A DNA stretch of 64,000 nt from an uncultured Gammaproteobacteria bacterium (GCA_964551605.1 CAZKCV010000005.1:7104-71103); one strand, 5' to 3'; shown: positions 2,602-53,486, numbered from the stretch's first letter. The notes: generated by a model from the letters alone, not told the origin. A program made the numbers and translations.

Positions 2602-5600
2602 TCCCCCTCCTCCTTTTCTTTCTCTGCTTCTGCATTTGCATCAACTACTTCAAAAGAACTGCCTTCAGCTTCAAGCTCTCCTTCACCGGCAATCGGCTTC
2701 ATTTCTAAAGCTTCTTCCATTTGCGCTACCTCAGCTGCTACGCCGGCTGCCTCTTCAACTTCCGGAGCTGAGACTATCTTAGCACCGAGTGTATCTACGG
2801 ATAAACCTAAAGCCTGCAACTCTTTAACTAAAACCTTAAAAGATTCCGGAATTAAAGCCTGCGGGATATCTATCCCTTTAACAATTGCTTCAAAAGTCTT
2901 AGCCCTGCCTACCACATCATCGGATTTTATTGTCAACATCTCCTGTAAGATATGGGCAGCACCATATGCTTCCAGCGCCCAAACTTCCATCTCTCCTAAA
3001 CGCTGACCGCCCATTTGAGCTTTTCCGCCCAAAGGCTGCTGGGTAACCAGGGAATATGGTCCGGTGGAACGGGCATGAATTTTTTCTTCCACCATGTGGA
3101 TTAGTTTGAGAATGTAATTCCTGCCTACTACTACGGTATTGCCGAACGGTTGCCCTGTCCTACCGTCAAAAAGCTGAGTTTTGCCGTCTGTTGAAAATCC
3201 TGCTTTTTGCAACTCTTCGATTAGTTTCTCTTCAGGAACTTTCTCAAAAACAGGAACAGCTATTTTATAGCCTAATTTCTTGGCTGCAAAACCCCAGTGT
3301 GTTTCCAGCAATTGTCCCAAATTCATCCTGGACAACACTGATAAAGGAGAAATAATAATGTCAATCGGTGTACCGTCTGCCAAATGGGGCATGTCTGCAA
3401 CAGGCACAATCCTGGAGATAACACCTTTATTACCATGCCGGCCGGCCAGTTTATCTCCGGCAGTAACTTTTCTAAGTTGGGCTACCTTAACCTTAATCCT
3501 CATCAAAGTTCCTGTATCCAGTTCATCACCTTCGTCACGCGAGAGGATCTGCACACCGATTACAGTACCCCTTTCGCCGTGGGGAATCCGCAGGGAAGTA
3601 TCCCTGACTTCTTTAGCCTTTTCTCCGAAAATAGCCCTTAGCAACCTCTCTTCTGCCGTCAGTTCGGTTTCACCTTTAGGCTGAACCTTACCAACTAAAA
3701 TATCATTCGGTCCCACCTCTGCTCCGATCCTAACAATGCCACCCTCATCCAAGTTAACTAAGGCTTCTTCTGAAACATTGGGAATATCATTGGTCAGCTC
3801 TTCCGGACCAAGCTTAGTTTCTACTACATCAACTTCATATTCCTCAATGTGGATGGAGGTTAATACATCATCTTTGACTAATCTATCGGAGATCACAATA
3901 GCATCTTCATACCCCAAACCGTCAAAGCTCATGTAGGCAATAAGCAGATTCTGCCCCAGTGCCAACTCCCCGCCTTCAGAAGCTACGCCGTCAATCAGCA
4001 AATCGCCTTTTTTTACCTTTGTCCCTGAATTTACAACCGGCCTTTGTGAATAACAGGTCCCTTGCGGAGAATGTACGAACTTCTTGATCTCATATTTGAA
4101 CTCCTCATTTTTACCTCCAGAGGAGGGGCGTGTTGTTTTTAAGATCAGCTTTTTACCGTCTACGTATTTTATTTCCCCATCTTCAGGTGCCCGTACTACC
4201 CTCCCCATATTATCGGCCACTATCTTCTCCATACCAGTTCCGACAATCGGAGCAGCAGGCTTAAGTAAAGGCACTGCCTGGCATTGCATTTGGGTACCCA
4301 TCAAAGCCCTATTAGCATCATCATTCGCTAAGAATGGGATCAAAGCAGCCGAAGTCCCAAAAATCTGTTGAGGAGAAATATCTATTAAGGAAATATTTTC
4401 TACCGGCCCTTCAAAGAAACTGCCTCGGAAACGGGTTGGTACCCTTTTATCTAAAATGTAGCCTTTGTCATCTGTATTTACTGTGGCTTCGGTAATATAG
4501 GAATCCTCCTCATCATCAGCGGTAAAATAAACCACCTCGTTGGTAACCCGCGGCCTGCCTTTTTCTTTTACCACCTTTCTATAAGGGGTTTCCAAAAAGC
4601 CATACTCGTTGATACGGGCGTATAAAGCCAAGTATGTCACCAAGCCAATATTTTGCCCTTCAGGGGATCGAATCGGATCGATTCTGCCGTATTGAGAATG
4701 ATTAATATCCCTGACGGAGAAGCTGGCTCTGTCCCGGGTAATACCGCCTGCTCCCATAACGGATAATCTCCTCAGATGGTCCAGTTCCGATAAAGGATTA
4801 ACCTGATCCAAAATGGAGGATAGTTGTGAAGAGCGGAAAAATTCATTAATGGCAGCAATGACAGGTTTAGCATTAATTAATCCACCGGGAGTAACTTCCT
4901 GGTCAACGGCTGTTAAACTCATTCTTTCCTTGATAATTCTTTCCAGCCTTAACACTCCGATCCGGAAAGCATTTTGCTGAACCAGTTCACCGGCACACCT
5001 GACCCTTCTGTTGGCCAAATGATCTATGTCGTCTAATTTGCCCTCACCGAGACTTAATTTAATCAGATACTTTAGAGTGGCAATTATATCTTCTTTGGTT
5101 AAAATCCAATTCTCCGAGGTATTAGGTAAACTTAAGTTTAATCTTTTATTGATTTTATATCTGCCCACCCGGATCAGATTATAACGGCGGGAGTTAAAAA
5201 ACATGCCGTCCAGTAAAGCCTTGGCATTATCCAAAACTACCGGATCTCCCGGACGCATCTTCCTGAAGATTTCTAAAAGTGCCTCATCCGTACTGGTAGT
5301 TGGGTCTTTAGATAAGGTATTGGCGATAAAATTATCCTCTTCCGTTTCAACATCGGCAAAAAGTTCTTTAATCGCTTCATTATCGGAAAATCCCAAAGCG
5401 CGAAGTAAAGTAGTGGCGGCAAATTTTCTCCTTCTGTCGATTTTAGCAGTTAAAACACCACCCCTGGTGATGGAAAATTCCAGCCAGGAACCCCGATACG
5501 GCCTGATCTCTGCCGAAAATAACCTTCTTCCGGTAATCGGATCATCACTGGCCTGAAAAAAGACACCGGGGGAGCGAACCAACTGGTTAATTATCACTCT

Positions 5601-14861: not shown

Positions 14862-14939
14862 CTTCCACCTCGGAGGTGGAAGTGTAGCTACACCTCGGTA
14901 TGTCCACCCTTGAGGTGGATTCATATTGACACCTGCGGA
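14862..14939. repeat. Copy 1 of a ~80-bp dispersed repeat with nested perfect palindromes (CTTCCACCTC-G-GAGGTGGAAG, then GTGTAGCTACAC)
   Basis: A 40-nt stretch (cttccacctcggaggtggaagtgtagctacacctcggtat) is identical to 25424-25463. The rest, ending ...ccttgRggKgatt...tattgacaSctgcgga, is ~85% identical. Confidence 0.85.
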
Positions 14940-14972
14940 TATGGAAATACTGTTGAGTCTATATCCATTATC

Positions 14973-14993
14973 TTCACGGCCGTGAACATTTTG
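14973..14993. repeat. 14-bp perfect palindrome TTCACGGCCGTGAA followed by CATTTTG (repeat family shared with 34637-34657)
   Basis: tcttcacggccgtgaacattttg here versus tcttcacgatcgtgaacattttg at 34635. Both lie at the 3' end of a convergent gene; they may be a terminator or an operator. Confidence 0.6.
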
Positions 14994-15024: not shown

Positions 15025-15618
15025 CTACCTAACTCTGCAAAGCACAAACTCACCAAGTCTGATTTGCTTAAGGATGCCTCCAATCTTTTCGTAATCACCC
15101 ACTTCAAGAGCCATTGGTTTTGTTGATGCCTCTTCGCTTGGCATAAAATTTAGTCTTGGATAACAATACACACCTGTCCTGATTTTCTCTGCTTCATCGT
15201 CATCAAGAATATCATACTTGATTATCTGCCCGACCTTCATCGCTTGACCATATTCATTAAAAAAGTATTTCTCCTCTATCACATAGACATCACCATTAGA
15301 AGCGATGAATTCAACAGGTAAAACTCCCAATGGGGTAATTACTTGTCTCCCGCTTGCACCGTTTGAGTGATCAAAATTTCCTATCGCAAAAGCAGGTAAC
15401 CTCAAAATATCAGTTATACCTGGGTAATCATCACTGGGTTCATCTATGAGAAGTCTTATGTCCACATTCTCATGATATGGACCAGAAACACGTTTAAACA
15501 CAACTGTATCAATAACATCAGACCTTCCTTTTGCTGCTTCTTGAAAGACTAAGTGAATCTGTTTTGCCAAATCACTATTTTCTTTCACAAATCTATCAAA
15601 TCCAACTTCTTTTTCCAT
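15025..15618 (-). CDS. Hypothetical protein
   Basis: 197-aa ORF with a 2-bp gap to ftsK upstream and no recognisable motif. Confidence 0.45.
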   Translation of the reverse strand: MEKEVGFDRFVKENSDLAKQIHLVFQEAAKGRSDVIDTVVFKRVSGPYHENVDIRLLIDEPSDDYPGITDILRLPAFAIGNFDHSNGASGRQVITPLGVLPVEFIASNGDVYVIEEKYFFNEYGQAMKVGQIIKYDILDDDEAEKIRTGVYCYPRLNFMPSEEASTKPMALEVGDYEKIGGILKQIRLGEFVLCRVR

Positions 15619-25297: not shown

Positions 25298-25423
25298 AGA
25301 ATTGTAGTCGCATTCTACACTTCTAGCCCATAATAGTCAAGTACCACGCTGACTATTTCAAGGTTCTGCCGAAGGCAGGTTCTTATAAAGATCAAGTCCT
25401 CGGTCTTCATTACTCTGAAGGAA

Positions 25424-25504
25424 CTTCCACCTCGGAGGTGGAAGTGTAGCTACACCTCGGTATATTCACTCTATGTTCACCCTTGGGGGATTTTGTATTG
25501 ACAG
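25424..25504. repeat. Copy 2 of the ~80-bp nested-palindrome repeat (see 14862-14939)
   Basis: gaaCTTCCACCTCGGAGGTGGAAGTGTAGCTACACCTCGGTAT...ccttgggggattttgtattgacagctgcgga. It lies between the divergent DHH-like gene and the Phd/RelE operon. Confidence 0.85.
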
Positions 25505-25536
25505 CTGCGGAAAACGATAAATAACAAATTGCACTA

Positions 25537-25565
25537 TTGACATACAATTGTATATACAATAATAT
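25537..25565 (+). promoter_or_regulatory. Sigma-70-type promoter TTGACA-N17-TAATAT with a palindromic operator-like TACAATTGTA in the spacer; it drives a near-leaderless antitoxin mRNA
   Basis: TTGACA at 25537-25542, 17-nt spacer, TAATAT at 25560-25565. The ATG of the Phd/YefM gene is at 25575, about 3 nt after the predicted TSS. Confidence 0.55.
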
Positions 25566-34014: not shown

Positions 34015-34224
34015 ATGAAAGCAATAGATATGACCAAAATTTACAGCAATAAAAACTACAAGGGCAAATGGGTGGCTATGATTGATTATGAGACCAAACC
34101 TAAAGTAGTGGCTTATGCTAGAACACTTAAGGAAGCCTTGAAGAGAGCTGAGAAAAGAGGCCATGAACACCCAGCGGTGACACAGATTCCCCGGGAAATA
34201 TTGCCAATAGTTGGAATCATTTAA
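34015..34224 (+). CDS. DUF5678-like small protein
   Basis: 69 aa, YKGKWVAMIDYETKPKVVAYARTLKEALKRAEKRGHEHPAVTQIP, the pattern of DUF5678 proteins. Its stop overlaps the next start (TAATG). Confidence 0.5.
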   Translation: MKAIDMTKIYSNKNYKGKWVAMIDYETKPKVVAYARTLKEALKRAEKRGHEHPAVTQIPREILPIVGII

Positions 34225-34622
34225 TGATTTTCCCCTATCAAAGAATTACTACTAAAATTGCGCGTCCGCTTATCTATATCATAGTCCGCTCGGCTACCAG
34301 ATTTGCTATTTATCCTGTATTAATAGACTCTGGAGCGGATTATTGTATTTTTAGTATAGAACTGGCAAAAGATTTAGGAATCAAACTTCAAGGTAGAAAG
34401 ACTAGCTTTATGGGTGTTGGCAAAGACAAAATAATTGGATCTTGGGGAGGAATTAATTTAAAAATCGGCAATATCACTTATGATACTAAAGTAATCTTTG
34501 CAGAAATCAGTAAATTTGGTCATGGAATTTTAGGTCAAAAGGGCTTCTTTAACCACTTTGATGTAAAATTAAGCTATCATAAACAGGTAATAGAGATTGA
34601 ACCTGTCAAAGTATCCAACTAG
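34224..34622 (+). CDS. Retropepsin-like (clan AA) aspartic protease
   Basis: 132 aa with the catalytic VLIDSGADYCIF (DSGA) motif and the downstream GILG flap-like segment. Confidence 0.7.
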   Translation: MIFPYQRITTKIARPLIYIIVRSATRFAIYPVLIDSGADYCIFSIELAKDLGIKLQGRKTSFMGVGKDKIIGSWGGINLKIGNITYDTKVIFAEISKFGHGILGQKGFFNHFDVKLSYHKQVIEIEPVKVSN

Positions 34623-34636
34623 ATATCTTCATTTTC

Positions 34637-34657
34637 TTCACGATCGTGAACATTTTG
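34637..34657. repeat. 14-bp perfect palindrome TTCACGATCGTGAA + CATTTTG (see 14973-14993)
   Basis: Direct reading. It lies 15 nt after the protease gene stop. Confidence 0.6.
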
Positions 34658-38020: not shown

Positions 38021-39841
38021 TCAACTCTTTAATATGCTCAGGAATGCCTCCTGAGGAATCTCAACTCTTCCAATCATCTTCATCTTTTTCTTACCCTTCT
38101 TTTGTTTTTCGAGCAGCTTATCTTTTCTGGTCCTGTCTCCACCATACAATTTGGCTATCACATCTTTCCTAAACGGGCTGATGGTTTCCCTGGCGATAAT
38201 AGTCCCCCCAATAGCAGCCTGGATAGCAATAACAAAGTTTTGCCGTGGCAACACCTCTCTTAACTTTTCTACCATTCTTCTGCCAAAGCCTTCTGCTTTA
38301 GGCCGGTAAACTATAGTTGAAAGCGCGTCCACTTTTTCTCCGGCCACTAAAATATCCACTCTGACCGCCTCCACCTCCCGAAAATCCAGCAGCTCCCAAT
38401 CCAGCGAGGCAAAACCGGAAGACACAGATTTCAACCGGTCATAAAAATTAGTTACCATCTCCGAAAGCGGCATTTCATAACTTAACTCTACCGCTACCCC
38501 AAAATGCTGCATATTTAAAAACCGACCCCTTTTCTCCTGAACTAATTCCATTACCCCACCAATATATTGCTGTGGCACAAATATTTTTAACTTTACCCAT
38601 GGTTCTTTAAGGGGTCGTCCTGAGGAGTGAAACGACGAAGGATCTAATTCTGCAGGATTAGTAATTATTTTATCTCCCCATAAATATTCTACCGAAGGAG
38701 CTGTAGCCAAAAGATCAACATTAAATTCCCCTGACAACCGCTCTTGTACCACTTCCGCATGCAACAACCCTAAGAACCCGCACCTAAAACCTGCTCCCAA
38801 AGCCTGGGAATGTTCCGGGATATAGGAAAAAGCCGGGTCAGTTAACCTGAATTTGGCCAATGCTTCTTTTAACTCAAAATATTCATCAGCGTCTATTGGG
38901 AAAAGACCTACAAACACCATGGGTTTTACCTCCTTGTATCCAGGTAAGGGAGAGGCTGAAAAATCCGTGGCTATTGTATCTCCCACCCTGACTAAATCCG
39001 GTTCTTTAATACCGGTTGCAATATAACCTATTTCACCAGCCTGTAAACCATCATTTACATTCAGCTGGGGAGCAAAAAAACCGGTTTCCAGAATATGGCC
39101 TTGGGCTTGAATCTGTAAAAAATGAATAGGAGCATTAATTGGTGGAGTTTGACCTTCAACTATTCTTACCTCCGCAATAACACCCTTAAAAGGATCGTAA
39201 AATGAATCAAAAATTAAAGCCTTAAGTCCAGGTGTAGCCTCGTTTCCACCTTCCAGGTGGATTACGTTGGCACCTGAAAGTTTGGGGGCAGGAATACGCT
39301 CAATTACCGCCTTCAAAAGATCTTCCACGCCTTCTCCGGTTTTGCCCGAGACCAACAAAATTTCCGATTCCGAAAAACCAAAGGTTTCTATTAATTGTTT
39401 TTTCGTATTTTCAATTTCCGCATTCGGCAAGTCAATTTTGTTAATAATCGGAATCAAGGTCAGGTTTTGCTCCAGTGCTGCCAGGCCATGAGCCAAAGTC
39501 TGAGCCTGAATACCCTGCGTGGCATCCACTAAAAGTATTGCTCCCTCCACTGCAGCCAAAGCCCGGGAGACTTCATAGGAAAAATCAACATGGCCGGGAG
39601 TATCTATTAAGTTAAGGGTATAGTTAGTAGCGTTCAGCGTGTAGTTTAAACGCACCGGAGCCAGCTTAATCGTAATCCCTCTTTCTCTCTCCAGAGATAA
39701 AGAATCTAATAACTGAGGCTGCAACTTATCCTTGGGCACAGTGCCGGTAATCTCCATTAACCTATCTGCTAAAGTAGATTTCCCGTGATCTATGTGGGCA
39801 ATAATTGAAAAGTTTCTAATATTCATATATTCATACGGCAT
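38021..39841 (-). CDS. lepA: Elongation factor 4 (LepA)
   Basis: NIRNFSIIAHIDHGKSTLADRL, DTPGHVDF and the LepA-specific C-terminal domain. The true start is probably the internal MNIRNF (39826). Confidence 0.9.
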   Translation of the reverse strand: MPYEYMNIRNFSIIAHIDHGKSTLADRLMEITGTVPKDKLQPQLLDSLSLERERGITIKLAPVRLNYTLNATNYTLNLIDTPGHVDFSYEVSRALAAVEGAILLVDATQGIQAQTLAHGLAALEQNLTLIPIINKIDLPNAEIENTKKQLIETFGFSESEILLVSGKTGEGVEDLLKAVIERIPAPKLSGANVIHLEGGNEATPGLKALIFDSFYDPFKGVIAEVRIVEGQTPPINAPIHFLQIQAQGHILETGFFAPQLNVNDGLQAGEIGYIATGIKEPDLVRVGDTIATDFSASPLPGYKEVKPMVFVGLFPIDADEYFELKEALAKFRLTDPAFSYIPEHSQALGAGFRCGFLGLLHAEVVQERLSGEFNVDLLATAPSVEYLWGDKIITNPAELDPSSFHSSGRPLKEPWVKLKIFVPQQYIGGVMELVQEKRGRFLNMQHFGVAVELSYEMPLSEMVTNFYDRLKSVSSGFASLDWELLDFREVEAVRVDILVAGEKVDALSTIVYRPKAEGFGRRMVEKLREVLPRQNFVIAIQAAIGGTIIARETISPFRKDVIAKLYGGDRTRKDKLLEKQKKGKKKMKMIGRVEIPQEAFLSILKS

Positions 39842-51479: not shown

Positions 51480-53486
51480 ATGCCCAACTTCCTCTTAGAT
51501 GACCTAAATCCTATCCAAAAACAAGCTGTCCAAGCCACCGAAGGTCCAGTTCTAATTTTAGCGGGGGCGGGTTCCGGTAAAACTAAAGTCTTAACCCACC
51601 GGGTGGCTTATTTAATCCAAGATAAAGGTATACCGCCGGAAAATATCCTATGTCTGACTTTCACCAATAAAGCTGCTGGTGAAATGATGGACCGGATTAG
51701 GAAACTTCTCCAAACTACCAACTACCAACTACCAACTACTCCCATCATGGGCACATTCCATAGCTTTTGCGCCAGGATCCTGCGCCGTGAGGGTCGGACC
51801 CTGGGACTCCCACCGGGATTTGCCATCTATGACGAAGGTGACACGCTGGACGCAGTAAAAGAAGCCATGGGCAATTTAAACATCCCCACCCAAAAAACTT
51901 CCCCCCACTCTGTCCGGACTACCATTTCCGGCGCTAAAAATGAACTCATCTCTTCCCTGGAATACCCCCAATATGCCAGGGGTTACTTTCAGGAAACGGT
52001 CGCCAAGATTTACCTGGAATACCAGAAAATTCTAGAGCGTAATCACGCCCTGGACTTTGATGACCTACTACTGTATGTCATTAGGTTATTCCAGGCCGAA
52101 CCCGCTATTTTAACCCGCTACCAAATTCAATTCAAATACATCTTAATTGACGAATACCAGGACACCAACCCGGCTCAATATCTAATCAGTAAGTATTTAG
52201 CCAACCGCCACAAAAACATCTGCGTGGTGGGAGATGCCAGCCAATCAATTTATTCCTTCCGGGGAGCTGATTTCCGCAATATTGTGAATTTTCAAAAAGA
52301 CTACCCGAATACTAAAGTCTTTAATCTTGAGCAAAATTACCGTTCTACTCAAAATATTCTGGATGCGGCCTTTGCAGTCATTTCCAAAAATAAATCCCAT
52401 CCAATCTTAAAGCTTTGGACTGATAACGATAGCGGAGAGAAAATTGAAGTGGTGGAAGTGAGAAATGAGATTGAGGAAACCTTATTTATCCTAAATACCA
52501 TCGCTCACCTCCGAGGTGAGCTTAAGACGACACCAGGATCACACCTCGGAGGTGTAACAAAATTATCTGATTTTGCCATCCTTTACAGAACCAATGCCCA
52601 ATCCAGATCTTTAGAAGAACAATTTCTAAAAGCCGGCATTCCATATCAACTAGTCGGCGGGGTCAGTTTCTATGCCAGAAAGGAAATTAAAGATGTTTTA
52701 GCTTATCTTCGCTTACTGCAAAACCCCAAAGATTCCGTATCCTTAAAACGGGCAGAGAAAATCGGTAAAGGAAGGCTCACCAAAATCATGGAACTCCAAA
52801 ACGTCATTGCGAGCGAAGCGAAGCAATCTGGCCCAGATAATAACCCCACCCAGATTGCTTCGTCGCCCCGTACCGTACGGTACGGGGCTCCTCGCAATGA
52901 CGACTTGTCTTGCACTACCCTTGAACTTCTGGACAAGATCCTAGAGGTAGCAGGTTATTTGACTTACCTGGACGATAGTACCGAAGAAGGAAAAATCCGG
53001 ATAGAAAACGTCAAAGAGCTACGCTCTGTAGCAGAAGAATTTCCTGATCTAACTAACTTTTTAGAAAACGTTGCTTTAATGGAAGCTTCCGATACACCGA
53101 AACACCGAAACACTGAAACGCTGAAAAAAGATGCCGTTACCTTAATGACCTTGCATTCCGCCAAAGGCTTAGAGTTTCCGGTCATTTTTATGGTTGGCAT
53201 GGAAGAAGGTCTATTCCCCCATTCAAGGTCTATGTTAGATCTTCATGAACTGGAAGAAGAAAGAAGACTTTGTTATGTTGGCATTACTAGGGCTAAAGAA
53301 AAATTGTACTTAACTTATACCAAGCAAAGGTTATATTTTGGCCAAAGAAGCAATAATTTAGTATCCAGATTTTTAGGAGATATCCCTCAGGATTTAATTT
53401 TAAGCAATACCAATTTTCGGGATCAGGATAGCTTTTTAGATGATGTTACTAGTAATATCAATGAGGACGATTGGCTAAAGATTTGA
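51480..53486 (+). CDS. uvrD: ATP-dependent DNA helicase UvrD/PcrA family, carrying several in-frame repeat insertions
   Basis: Walker A AGAGSGKTKVLTHRVAYLI, motifs TFTNKAAGEM, GTFHSFC, DEYQDTNPAQY, VGDASQSIYSFRGAD, TLHSAKGLEFPVIF, and VGITRAKEKLYLTY. Confidence 0.85.
   Translation: MPNFLLDDLNPIQKQAVQATEGPVLILAGAGSGKTKVLTHRVAYLIQDKGIPPENILCLTFTNKAAGEMMDRIRKLLQTTNYQLPTTPIMGTFHSFCARILRREGRTLGLPPGFAIYDEGDTLDAVKEAMGNLNIPTQKTSPHSVRTTISGAKNELISSLEYPQYARGYFQETVAKIYLEYQKILERNHALDFDDLLLYVIRLFQAEPAILTRYQIQFKYILIDEYQDTNPAQYLISKYLANRHKNICVVGDASQSIYSFRGADFRNIVNFQKDYPNTKVFNLEQNYRSTQNILDAAFAVISKNKSHPILKLWTDNDSGEKIEVVEVRNEIEETLFILNTIAHLRGELKTTPGSHLGGVTKLSDFAILYRTNAQSRSLEEQFLKAGIPYQLVGGVSFYARKEIKDVLAYLRLLQNPKDSVSLKRAEKIGKGRLTKIMELQNVIASEAKQSGPDNNPTQIASSPRTVRYGAPRNDDLSCTTLELLDKILEVAGYLTYLDDSTEEGKIRIENVKELRSVAEEFPDLTNFLENVALMEASDTPKHRNTETLKKDAVTLMTLHSAKGLEFPVIFMVGMEEGLFPHSRSMLDLHELEEERRLCYVGITRAKEKLYLTYTKQRLYFGQRSNNLVSRFLGDIPQDLILSNTNFRDQDSFLDDVTSNINEDDWLKI
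51713..51740. repeat. Heptanucleotide tandem repeat (AACTACC) x3 perfect + 1 imperfect, in frame within uvrD (encodes TTNYQLPTTP between helicase motifs Ia and II)
   Basis: aactaccaactaccaactaccaactact read directly. Related CTACCA-type heptads occur in the FemAB-like gene (59408-59476) and sbcD (62894-62914). Confidence 0.85.
52503..52557. repeat. Two CACCTC-N-GAGGTG palindromes (GCTCACCTC-C-GAGGTGAGC and ACACCTC-G-GAGGTGT) in frame within uvrD; same core as the 14862/25424 repeat
   Basis: Direct reading. They encode HLRGELKTTPGSHLGGVTKL, a segment absent from typical UvrD alignments at this position. Confidence 0.7.
52803..52901. repeat. 99-bp in-frame palindromic (MITE-like) element in uvrD, with perfect 11-bp TIRs GTCATTGCGAG / CTCGCAATGAC, an internal 13-bp inverted repeat and a 22-bp perfect palindrome
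   Basis: gtcattgcgagcgaagcgaagcaatctgg...ccagattgcttcgtcgCCCCGTACCGTACGGTACGGGGctcctcgcaatgac. It is exactly 33 codons (VIASEAKQSGPDNNPTQIASSPRTVRYGAPRNDD) and belongs to the GTCATYC family. Confidence 0.85.
53098..53127. repeat. Octamer-like tandem repeat ACCGAAAC/ACCGAAAC/ACTGAAAC/GCTGAAAA in frame within uvrD
   Basis: accgaaacaccgaaacactgaaacgctgaaaa encodes TPKHRNTETLKK just before the conserved motif V region. Confidence 0.6.

Follow-up and report, generated by a model that had tools for sequence, protein, structure and literature searches.

The 64-kb stretch of DNA analysed here (CAZKCV010000005.1, positions 7104–71103; its full 64,000 nucleotides are called the window) carries two copies of a short palindromic repeat, a candidate element of the repetitive extragenic palindromic (REP) type that we examined together with genes resembling REP-associated tyrosine transposases (RAYTs) in related genomes. 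The window is assigned to Candidatus Daviesbacteria, a member of the Candidate Phyla Radiation (CPR), because the closest homologues of two window proteins bear that name. Copy 1 lies 28 nt from the GTG start (14834) of tsaC (Sua5/YrdC family), and copy 2 lies 127 nt from the ATG start (25297) of an open reading frame (ORF) that is followed by rpsO and pnp. This ORF, referred to as DHH-like, has no Pfam match, and the name DHH phosphoesterase is borne by some of its database homologues only. A Phd/YafQ-type toxin-antitoxin pair runs divergently from 25575.

The core of the repeat is a 40-mer, CTTCCACCTCGGAGGTGGAAGTGTAGCTACACCTCGGTAT, that occurs exactly twice in the window, at 14862–14901 and 25424–25463, both times on the plus strand. 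No exact pair of this kind was found in 100 shuffles, and a repeat finder returned the identical 40-mer pair (family D2). Within the 40-mer, 10-bp arms (CTTCCACCTC and GAGGTGGAAG) surround a single G, and a 12-bp perfect palindrome (GTGTAGCTACAC) is also contained in it. The first-pass annotation of this DNA had described two ~80-bp repeats sharing an identical 40-mer, built from nested perfect palindromes and placed 28 and 127 nt from the gene starts; the repeats are real, both palindromes are present and the distances are correct. It had given the 40-mer in three pieces that overlap by one base at each junction, so that the 40-mer itself exists while the simple 42-nt join of the pieces is absent from the window. 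Downstream of the 40-mer the copies diverge, the common remainder being CC(C)TTGRGG…GATT…TATTGACA[C/G]CTGCGGA, and in pairwise alignment copy 2 is longer than copy 1 by ~10 bases in this part. The boundaries of copy 1 were taken as the points where the alignment of the two copies stops; its 3' boundary, CCTGCGGA at 14939, coincides with the onset of agreement between the flanks of two related loci, L086 and L092 (loci are cited by L numbers). Copy 2 ends at 25511 (…TATTGACAGCTGCGGA) rather than at 25504 as initially annotated.

In each copy two ~40-nt units stand in tandem and in the same orientation. A unit consists of a hairpin, either TTCCACCTC-G-GAGGTGGAA or its variant GTCCACCCTTGRGGTGGAT, then a few bases and then a module (GTAGCTACACCTCGG or TATTGACACCTGCGG). 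Unit 1 is made of hairpin A and module B (GTGTAGCTACACCTCGGTAT), unit 2 of hairpin C and module D, and the two units align position for position (Table 1). The modules repeat the left-arm motif CACCT(C/G)CGG of the hairpin: each carries TATTGACA (or GTAGCTACA) plus a third copy of the arm motif CACCTCGG, which gives three half-sites per unit arranged → ← →.

Table 1. Coordinates of the repeat copies, their parts and related features (window positions unless stated otherwise).
Feature	Position	Strand	Description
Copy 1, composite element	14862–14939	+	78 nt; two tandem, same-orientation units of probable REP type; exact 40-mer and common 3' end
Hairpin A	14862–14882	+	CTTCCACCTC-G-GAGGTGGAAG, 10-bp arms; in 72 metagenome loci; flanks Y1 transposase genes
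Module B	14882–14901	+	GTGTAGCTACAC palindrome running into CACCTCGGTAT; repeats the hairpin left-arm motif CACCTCGG
Hairpin C	14902–14920	+	GTCCACCCTTGAGGTGGAT, variant of hairpin A
Module D	14921–14939	+	TCATATTGACACCTGCGGA; TTGACA hexamer at 14926–14931
Copy 2, composite element	25424–25511	+	88 nt; unit 1 identical to that of copy 1; unit 2 decayed, ~10 extra bases between
Copy 2, unit 1	25424–25463	+	exact 40-mer; hairpin A at 25424–25444, then module B
Copy 2, unit 2	25475–25511	+	degenerate hairpin C (GTTCACCCTTGGGGGAT, now poorly pairing), then module D with TTGACA at 25498–25503
Degenerate unit of probable REP type in lepA (38021–39841)	39229–39276	-	in frame, linker between G domain and domain II; encodes …SGANVIHLEGGNEATP…; 3 mismatches to the hairpin
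Inverted doublet of short hairpins in uvrD/pcrA-like gene (51480–53486)	52503–52557	+	GCTCACCTCCGAGGTGAGC … TCACACCTCGGAGGTGTAA; CACCTC-N-GAGGTG core; in frame
RAYT-like paralogues of L091	3661–4311 and 10001–10651 (in L091)		56% and 67% identical to the L043 protein

Copies of the unit were also found elsewhere. A metagenome scan with hairpin A alone gave 72 loci, mostly from groundwater-type samples, whose flanking DNA was unrelated from one locus to the next; in many of them the stem was extended by complementary flanking bases (ATAACCTC…GAGGTTAT in L070, AACCAC…GTGGTT in L059). When a genome collection was scanned with a 20-mer spanning the hairpin/palindrome junction, five loci carried hairpin A plus module B and were unrelated beyond it, two of them being metagenome-assembled genomes of Candidatus Daviesbacteria with one exact 20-mer each. 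The other three of the eight genome-scan matches (Tidjanibacter) were rejected as chance matches in coding sequence that has no hairpin. Module B also follows the hairpin in L002, L003, L005, L006, L008, L024, L041, L063, L086 and L092. Three of these (L002, L003 and L005; 33–38% G+C) carry an almost identical unit 1 and are titled 'uncultured Gammaproteobacteria', a label that is unconfirmed. They showed no overlap with the Daviesbacteria loci and their protein clusters are unnamed; if the label is correct the element would span phyla, and we do not claim such spread.

Pairs of hairpins ~712 nt apart enclosed a single ORF in L043, L051, L057, L060 and L077, and an inverted pair did so in L048. 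The enclosed ORFs encode proteins of 213–224 amino acids that matched Pfam Y1_Tnp above its cut-off (28–38 bits vs 23), and their sole NCBIfam match was REP_Tyr_transpos (E 1e-13 to 4e-18); at E ≤ 0.01 none of the IS200-type NCBIfam models gave a match. Searched against the PDB, a single transposase sequence found no match and only a profile of nine sequences did, with E. coli TnpA_REP (4er8) as the best match (E 3e-5) and the IS200-type ISDra2 TnpA at ~0.05. The HUH motif (NHFH) and the tyrosine motif RYIHLNP were invariant in the aligned transposases. A database search returned >7,900 homologues, and all named ones came from Daviesbacteria or Microgenomates. In L088 (complete genome CP066688.1), L091, L043 and L041 the gene occupies the same neighbourhood, between genes for Lon and a CobA/BtuR-like protein on one side and ribonucleotide reductase (RNR) on the other, and the proteins encoded there are 66–77% identical. 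Such fixed synteny despite the protein divergence is what a vertically inherited RAYT would show, rather than a hopping insertion sequence (IS). As a separate observation, a further RAYT-like Y1 gene at 3429–3929 of L086 has no recognisable flanking hairpins and adjoins an rve-type IS.

The units that flank these genes are those of the window. A unit flanks the Y1 gene in L041, L043, L048, L051, L057, L058, L088, L089 and L091. On both sides of the gene in L091, GTCCACCCTTGGGGTGGAT is followed by GTATTGACACCTGCGGATAT, which corresponds to window unit 2: hairpin C differs from GTCCACCCTTGGGGTGGAT by one base and module D matches GTATTGACACCTGCGGATAT. A near-identical unit, with flanks ending in …GGAAT, was present in L089. 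Upstream of the gene in L043, L041 and L058, hairpin A is followed by TGTATTGACACCTCGG, and downstream of it in L041 unit 1 (with GTAGCTACACCTCGG) is followed by the unit-2 hairpin, the composite layout seen in the window. The two paralogues of L091 each have their own hairpin (CAAACCCGGTTTG vs GTCCACCCTTGGGGTGGAT) and have the layout, the GTATTGACA box and the promoter spacing in common; the module beside the CAAACCCGGTTTG hairpin repeats the arm of that hairpin. Seven regions upstream of RAYT-like genes share one arrangement, in which TTGACA of the module is followed by exactly 17 nt, TAnnnT, 7–9 nt and ATG. This resembles a promoter of the σ70 type, with a transposase mRNA that would be leaderless or nearly so. 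As the apparent -35 of the transposase promoter lies in the module, dispersed units carry a -35 box but no -10, and the TTGACA boxes of the window copies have no usable -10 at 16–18 nt.

The orthologous sites in relatives of the window showed both presence and absence of the element. The syntenic order in relatives is IF-2 | DHH-like, rpsO, pnp, Lon-like AAA, RNase J, FtsK | tsaC, the bars marking the two junctions. In L083, the closest relative found (DHH-like protein 91% identical), and in L085 (81%), the element is at neither junction; the FtsK–tsaC spacers measure 39 and 38 nt, and the junctions are without even a short CACCTC-N-GAGGTG hairpin. In L086 (78%) and L092 (68%) it is at both. 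The window orientation is kept by the L092 units at both junctions and by the L086 unit at IF2/DHH. L092 lies on the contig of the L091 transposase, and its IF2/DHH unit, ~100 kb from that gene, is of the type that flanks it, with an identical hairpin and a module one mismatch off the consensus. At FtsK/tsaC, L092 carries a unit-1 copy that is orthologous to window copy 1 and shares its right flank (CAGRRATA…TGGTACAAT). At the IF2/DHH site, L086 and L092 have the left flank CTCTCTGCATCAATTGCAGAA in common and carry different unit types.

Both junctions also differ between genomes in their gene content. Window copy 2 adjoins toxin-antitoxin and EamA genes that are absent from relatives. Between FtsK and tsaC in the window is an ORF of 197 amino acids (15025–15618, minus strand) that has no Pfam match and starts 2–3 nt past the stop codon of FtsK. 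L083, L085 and L092 do not have this ORF, their FtsK–tsaC distance being about 40–130 nt, and L086 has two different small ORFs at its position. With accessory ORFs beside both copies, both junctions are sites of accessory-DNA turnover, and on this comparison of gene orders the FtsK/tsaC junction is an accessory-gene hot spot. The copies before tsaC and the DHH-like gene are best taken as marking variable junctions and not regulation of those genes: the annotated position just upstream of gene starts is correct, and it follows from the location of the variable intergenic junctions and not from a tie to the genes.

Some copies are intragenic. At the site of the degenerate unit in lepA, the window LepA linker has a 12-residue insertion relative to T. 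thermophilus EF4, and in L006 the corresponding linker site holds a unit that is nearly intact. Among the best 120 LepA homologues listed, the linker was readable in 82 Daviesbacteria sequences. A short form of 8 or 9 residues (typically KQEIEKPLK) accounted for 57 of the 82, and about 25 had 11–23 residues, most of which read as translated units of differing types and frames. The linker peptide SAGVN corresponds to TCCGCAGGTGTCAAT, the reverse complement of module D, and SRGVAT to the reverse complement of module B; PPPRWK and HLEGG correspond to hairpin A in two different frames, and FHPKGG and PPQGW to hairpin C. Hairpin A is tolerated in ORFs because none of its six reading frames contains a stop codon. 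The LepA that is probably of the same genome as the L083-type DHH protein has an empty linker. The inverted doublet in the uvrD/pcrA-like gene adds 10 residues relative to PcrA and recurs intergenically in L092 (4495–4540), upstream of dnaJ; it looks like a second, REPIN-like sub-family that has the CACCTC-N-GAGGTG core in common. Overall, two composite copies and two intragenic relics were counted in the window, and in the metagenome loci 38 of 63 distinct hairpin sites (60%) fell outside stop-free stretches of at least 120 codons, though such stretches make up ~80% of the DNA.

The units match the flanks of the transposase genes, the enzyme is probably of the RAYT class and its gene is syntenic, and the units themselves are scattered, in part within genes, and vary between genomes in their presence. 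We therefore regard the repeats as very probably copies of a non-autonomous REP-type element that belongs to a Candidatus Daviesbacteria genome and is linked to a RAYT-like Y1 transposase. A REP-like element was one of three options offered in the first-pass annotation, and it is borne out by units that flank RAYT-like Y1 genes in related Daviesbacteria and are scattered in unrelated contexts, ORFs included. On the model of E. coli TnpA_REP and of the IS200/IS605 enzymes, we infer that the enzyme would recognise the hairpin in single-stranded DNA, to which it would bind, and would cut and rejoin beside it, thereby seeding or renewing copies at tolerant sites; these would be variable intergenic junctions and protein linkers. 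The transposase gene of the window genome would then lie elsewhere or be absent. Incidental effects of a copy, from its outward-facing -35 box or from a stable hairpin in read-through RNA, are possible.

Several results weigh against this reading. The RAYT model scored 49–66 bits, under its 80-bit cut-off, and the units around the transposase gene were in direct orientation in 9 of 10 cases, inverted only in L048. No Y1 transposase gene was found by tblastn within the window; the annotated absence of a transposase association therefore holds for the window, and is misleading for the family, whose units in relatives flank Y1 genes. A general GTAG or CGTC tag is missing from the stem foot: in unit 1 a GTAG falls inside GTGTAGCTACAC, 6 nt from the stem and on the bottom strand, and its place is taken by TATTGACA in unit 2 and in most of the units that flank a transposase gene. 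The apparent copy number is low, with 0–2 sites per ~20-kb locus in the relatives away from transposase genes (fragments were read). A precise pair of empty and filled sites was sought at both junctions for a target-site signature, and none was derivable because the flanks are rearranged by other insertions (the 197-residue ORF; the Phd/RelE and EamA genes); with no such pair at nucleotide resolution, transposition is our inference. Finally, at FtsK/tsaC the L092 and window units are identical at 35 of 38 positions (92%), in comparison with 61% for tsaC, 75% for the FtsK 3' end and 43% for the neighbouring spacer, which hints at a constraint beyond that of a purely selfish element.

This last comparison also bears on a more specific proposal, which we hold tentatively and consider doubtful, that REP units occupy a small set of fixed orthologous Daviesbacteria sites, namely the LepA (EF4) linker, where the unit is in frame, and the junctions at either end of the DHH-rpsO-pnp-Lon-RNase J-FtsK block. 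It arises because units at common sites are far more alike than their surroundings (92% vs 43–75%) while their types switch between lineages. If it were true, either the RAYT-like enzyme would re-target or overwrite the sites (homing, or in-situ conversion to match the resident transposase) or the host would select the hairpins. To our knowledge, neither site re-targeting or conversion nor host selection at fixed sites has been described for REP/RAYT systems.

Of the other explanations for the units, the one that survives best, and which we consider unlikely, is that they are the ends, or miniature inverted-repeat transposable element (MITE)-like derivatives, of an ordinary IS200-type IS, an autonomous element of ~750 bp and not a domesticated RAYT/REP system. 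The left and right ends of IS200/IS605 elements are in direct orientation, as are the hairpins on both sides of the gene in all cases except that of L048; the size of IS200 is close to the ~712-nt spacing, Pfam gives only the generic Y1_Tnp, and L091 has two gene copies. Against it stand the single Lon-CobA-gene-RNR neighbourhood at 66–77% protein identity, which points to vertical descent, and the two L091 genes themselves, whose identities of 56% and 67% to the same L043 reference and different hairpins indicate that they are not recent IS duplicates. In addition, the sole NCBIfam match is the RAYT model and the best-matching solved structure is TnpA_REP, and solo units far outnumber gene-containing ones.

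It is also quite improbable, in our judgement, that the host keeps the element for its own ends, as a 3' stabiliser or terminator in read-through RNA or as a boundary marker of the DHH-rpsO-pnp-Lon-RNase J-FtsK block. Units do lie at both junctions of this ~10-kb block in three genomes (the window, L086 and L092), their orientation agreeing between the window and L092 at each junction, and at IF2/DHH also in L086; the FtsK/tsaC unit 1 is conserved between the window and L092 to the extent given above (35/38, vs 61% for tsaC and 43% for the spacer); and the predicted hairpins are stable. Roles of this kind have been reported for REPs elsewhere (PMC3733652). Relatives at 91% and 81% identity nevertheless do without the element at both sites, and the different unit types of L086 and L092 beside the same IF2/DHH left flank fit turnover better than they fit a fixed function. 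Both junctions are simply sites of accessory-gene gain and loss.

The hairpins are followed by no U-tract, the promoter and terminator scans predicted nothing inside either copy, and copy 2 is upstream of both predicted divergent promoters. Predicted RNA folds of the copies ranged from -31 to -34 kcal/mol on the plus strand and from -23.5 to -32 on the minus strand, with z of -2 to -2.9 in three of the four folds; RNA and single-stranded DNA folds of the units gave the expected hairpins on both strands, with z-scores of -1 to -3.8. Across 18 units, not all of them selected by hairpin pattern, pairing of the 10-bp stem was kept in 90% of cells, with a few two-sided changes (T-A to C-G), and the covariation score of the stem exceeded that of all 500 shuffles. 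Some compensated arm changes, which the first-pass annotation had named as a check, were thus seen; they are weak evidence, as the units are highly conserved and mutually related. A covariance search of the whole window with Rfam 15 gave nothing at gathering thresholds, and at E ≤ 1 the two copies gave only a chance match to AfaR (19 bits vs a 100-bit cut-off). The suggestion of a small structured RNA is accordingly disfavoured by the missing Rfam match, the place of copy 2 upstream of both divergent promoters and the modest fold z-scores. A tRNA/tmRNA scan found nothing, which argues against a tRNA-linked attachment site, and two pattern scans of viral contigs gave no match and thus no sign of phage origin.

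That the palindromes are an operator through which a dimeric transcription factor co-regulates tsaC and the DHH-like/rpsO/pnp (or Phd/RelE) operon is very improbable and largely refuted: perfect palindromes of 10-bp arms and 12 bp, a motif (CACCTCGG) present three times per unit and the position of both copies upstream of minus-strand gene starts would suit it, but L083 and L085 conserve the promoters at the orthologous sites (an extended -10, TGGTACAAT or TGATACAAT, before tsaC and TTGAYT-17-TAGAAT before the DHH-like gene) without the element, the TTGACA-17-TAATAT promoter of the Phd/RelE operon is covered by a palindrome of its own, TACAATTGTATA, and units also lie inside the lepA and uvrD frames and on both sides of transposase genes.

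Other small repeats and palindromes were noted near the copies. A second repeat (14960–14993 and 34624–34657) has the core TTCACG-NN-CGTGAA and conserved flanks (…TTCTTCACGNNCGTGAACATTTTG), with 2 copies vs 0.03 expected; one copy is between the 197-residue ORF and copy 1, and the other directly follows the stop of the ORF at 34224–34622. L086 and L092 have the motif ahead of tsaC too, in either orientation; a weak terminator and a site of protein binding are possible roles. At the Phd/YafQ operon, a strong TTGACA-17-TAATAT promoter (25537–25565) is overlapped by the palindrome TACAATTGTATATACAAT, which is likely an autoregulatory operator; at about 9470–9515 of L086 a remnant (GGTATACAATTGTATGTCAA) lies beside the REP unit, and the toxin-antitoxin genes are absent there. 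Upstream of the DHH-like gene, the hairpin TCTGCCGAAGGCAGG (25365–25379) and the promoter TTGACT-17-TAGAAT (25312–25340) are both conserved in L083, and in the window and L083 the promoter-proximal GAGGACTTGATYTTTATAA is apparently duplicated around this hairpin. The uvrD/pcrA-like gene contains, at 52803–52901, an in-frame nested palindrome of ~100 nt with outer arms GTCATTGCGAG / CTCGCAATGAC and inner hairpins CGAAGCAATCTGG / CCAGATTGCTTCG and GCCCCGTACCGT / ACGGTACGGGGC, encoding …VIASEAKQSG…APRNDD…. Downstream of IF-2, L092 carries sequences resembling it (GTCATTGCGAGG…GCAATC), as L086 does more loosely, and there is a looser resemblance near the L008 element; this is another repeat family. 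Two ~1.2-kb Logan contigs carrying the DHH-like gene (L081 and L082) end at or just short of copy 2, L082 inside module B, and the repeat may therefore break short-read assemblies of this organism.

Reading the repeats as REP-type units removes a tempting false lead, that of a shared operator or riboswitch-like RNA for tsaC and rpsO/pnp, and would document a REP/RAYT-type system in the CPR. At ~1 Mb the genomes of this group are tiny and streamlined, and few repeats are assumed to occur in them; in the literature searched we found no paper linking REP/RAYT to CPR bacteria, a statement confined to that literature. The system would be useful for study, with its very short and defined unit, embedded -35 box and paralogous transposases that have their own hairpins, and the repeated in-frame occupation of the LepA linker offers a natural presence/absence marker across hundreds of metagenomic genomes.

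Among known systems, textbook REPs are present in hundreds of copies. The likeness is closest to the REP/RAYT systems (REPtrons, including that of E. coli TnpA_REP, 4er8), which (PMC2817692, PMC3733652, PMC5581495) likewise have a palindromic unit that flanks a single Y1/HUH gene and also occurs solo or clustered. In both, the transposase gene is syntenic and vertically inherited, paralogues each have their own hairpin, and copies are mostly extragenic with some inside genes, a repair helicase included. The Daviesbacteria system differs in its CPR host, in flanking units that are direct and not inverted, in the TATTGACA box with its apparent -35 of a leaderless transposase promoter, in a longer protein (214–224 residues vs 165) that scores under the NCBIfam RAYT cut-off, in its low apparent copy number and in having no general GTAG/CGTC tag. 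RAYT groups 1 and 4 are reported to have low-copy flanking repeats of 12–14 occurrences (PMC5581495), and another account describes the organisation of REPs around RAYT genes as variable and the REP tag as an unpaired GTAG (or CGTC) at the stem foot (PMC3733652). REPINs, doublets of REP units thought to be the mobilised entity, are similar in their long persistence and vertical inheritance with a RAYT (PMC3116915); a REPIN is two inverted REPs that form one long hairpin, whereas the window units are direct and of different types (A+B, then C+D), and inversion of the REPIN kind was found in the window only in the uvrD-internal doublet.

IS200/IS605 elements and their miniature derivatives resemble the system in their Y1 HUH transposase, their subterminal hairpins of the same orientation at both ends and their size of about 0.7 kb. 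They differ in that the Daviesbacteria gene sits at one syntenic site and has RAYT, not IS200 TnpA, as its best profile and structure matches; near-identical multiple full-length copies of gene plus ends were not seen in the genome fragments examined. Rickettsia palindromic elements (RPEs) and other intragenic REPs lie in frame in housekeeping genes and encode a short peptide in a tolerant loop. The palindromic inserts described here are in frame in the same manner, in lepA and uvrD/pcrA. Their sequence and host are unrelated to those of RPEs, the Daviesbacteria insert is much shorter (12–15 codons), and its cognate transposase is identifiable.

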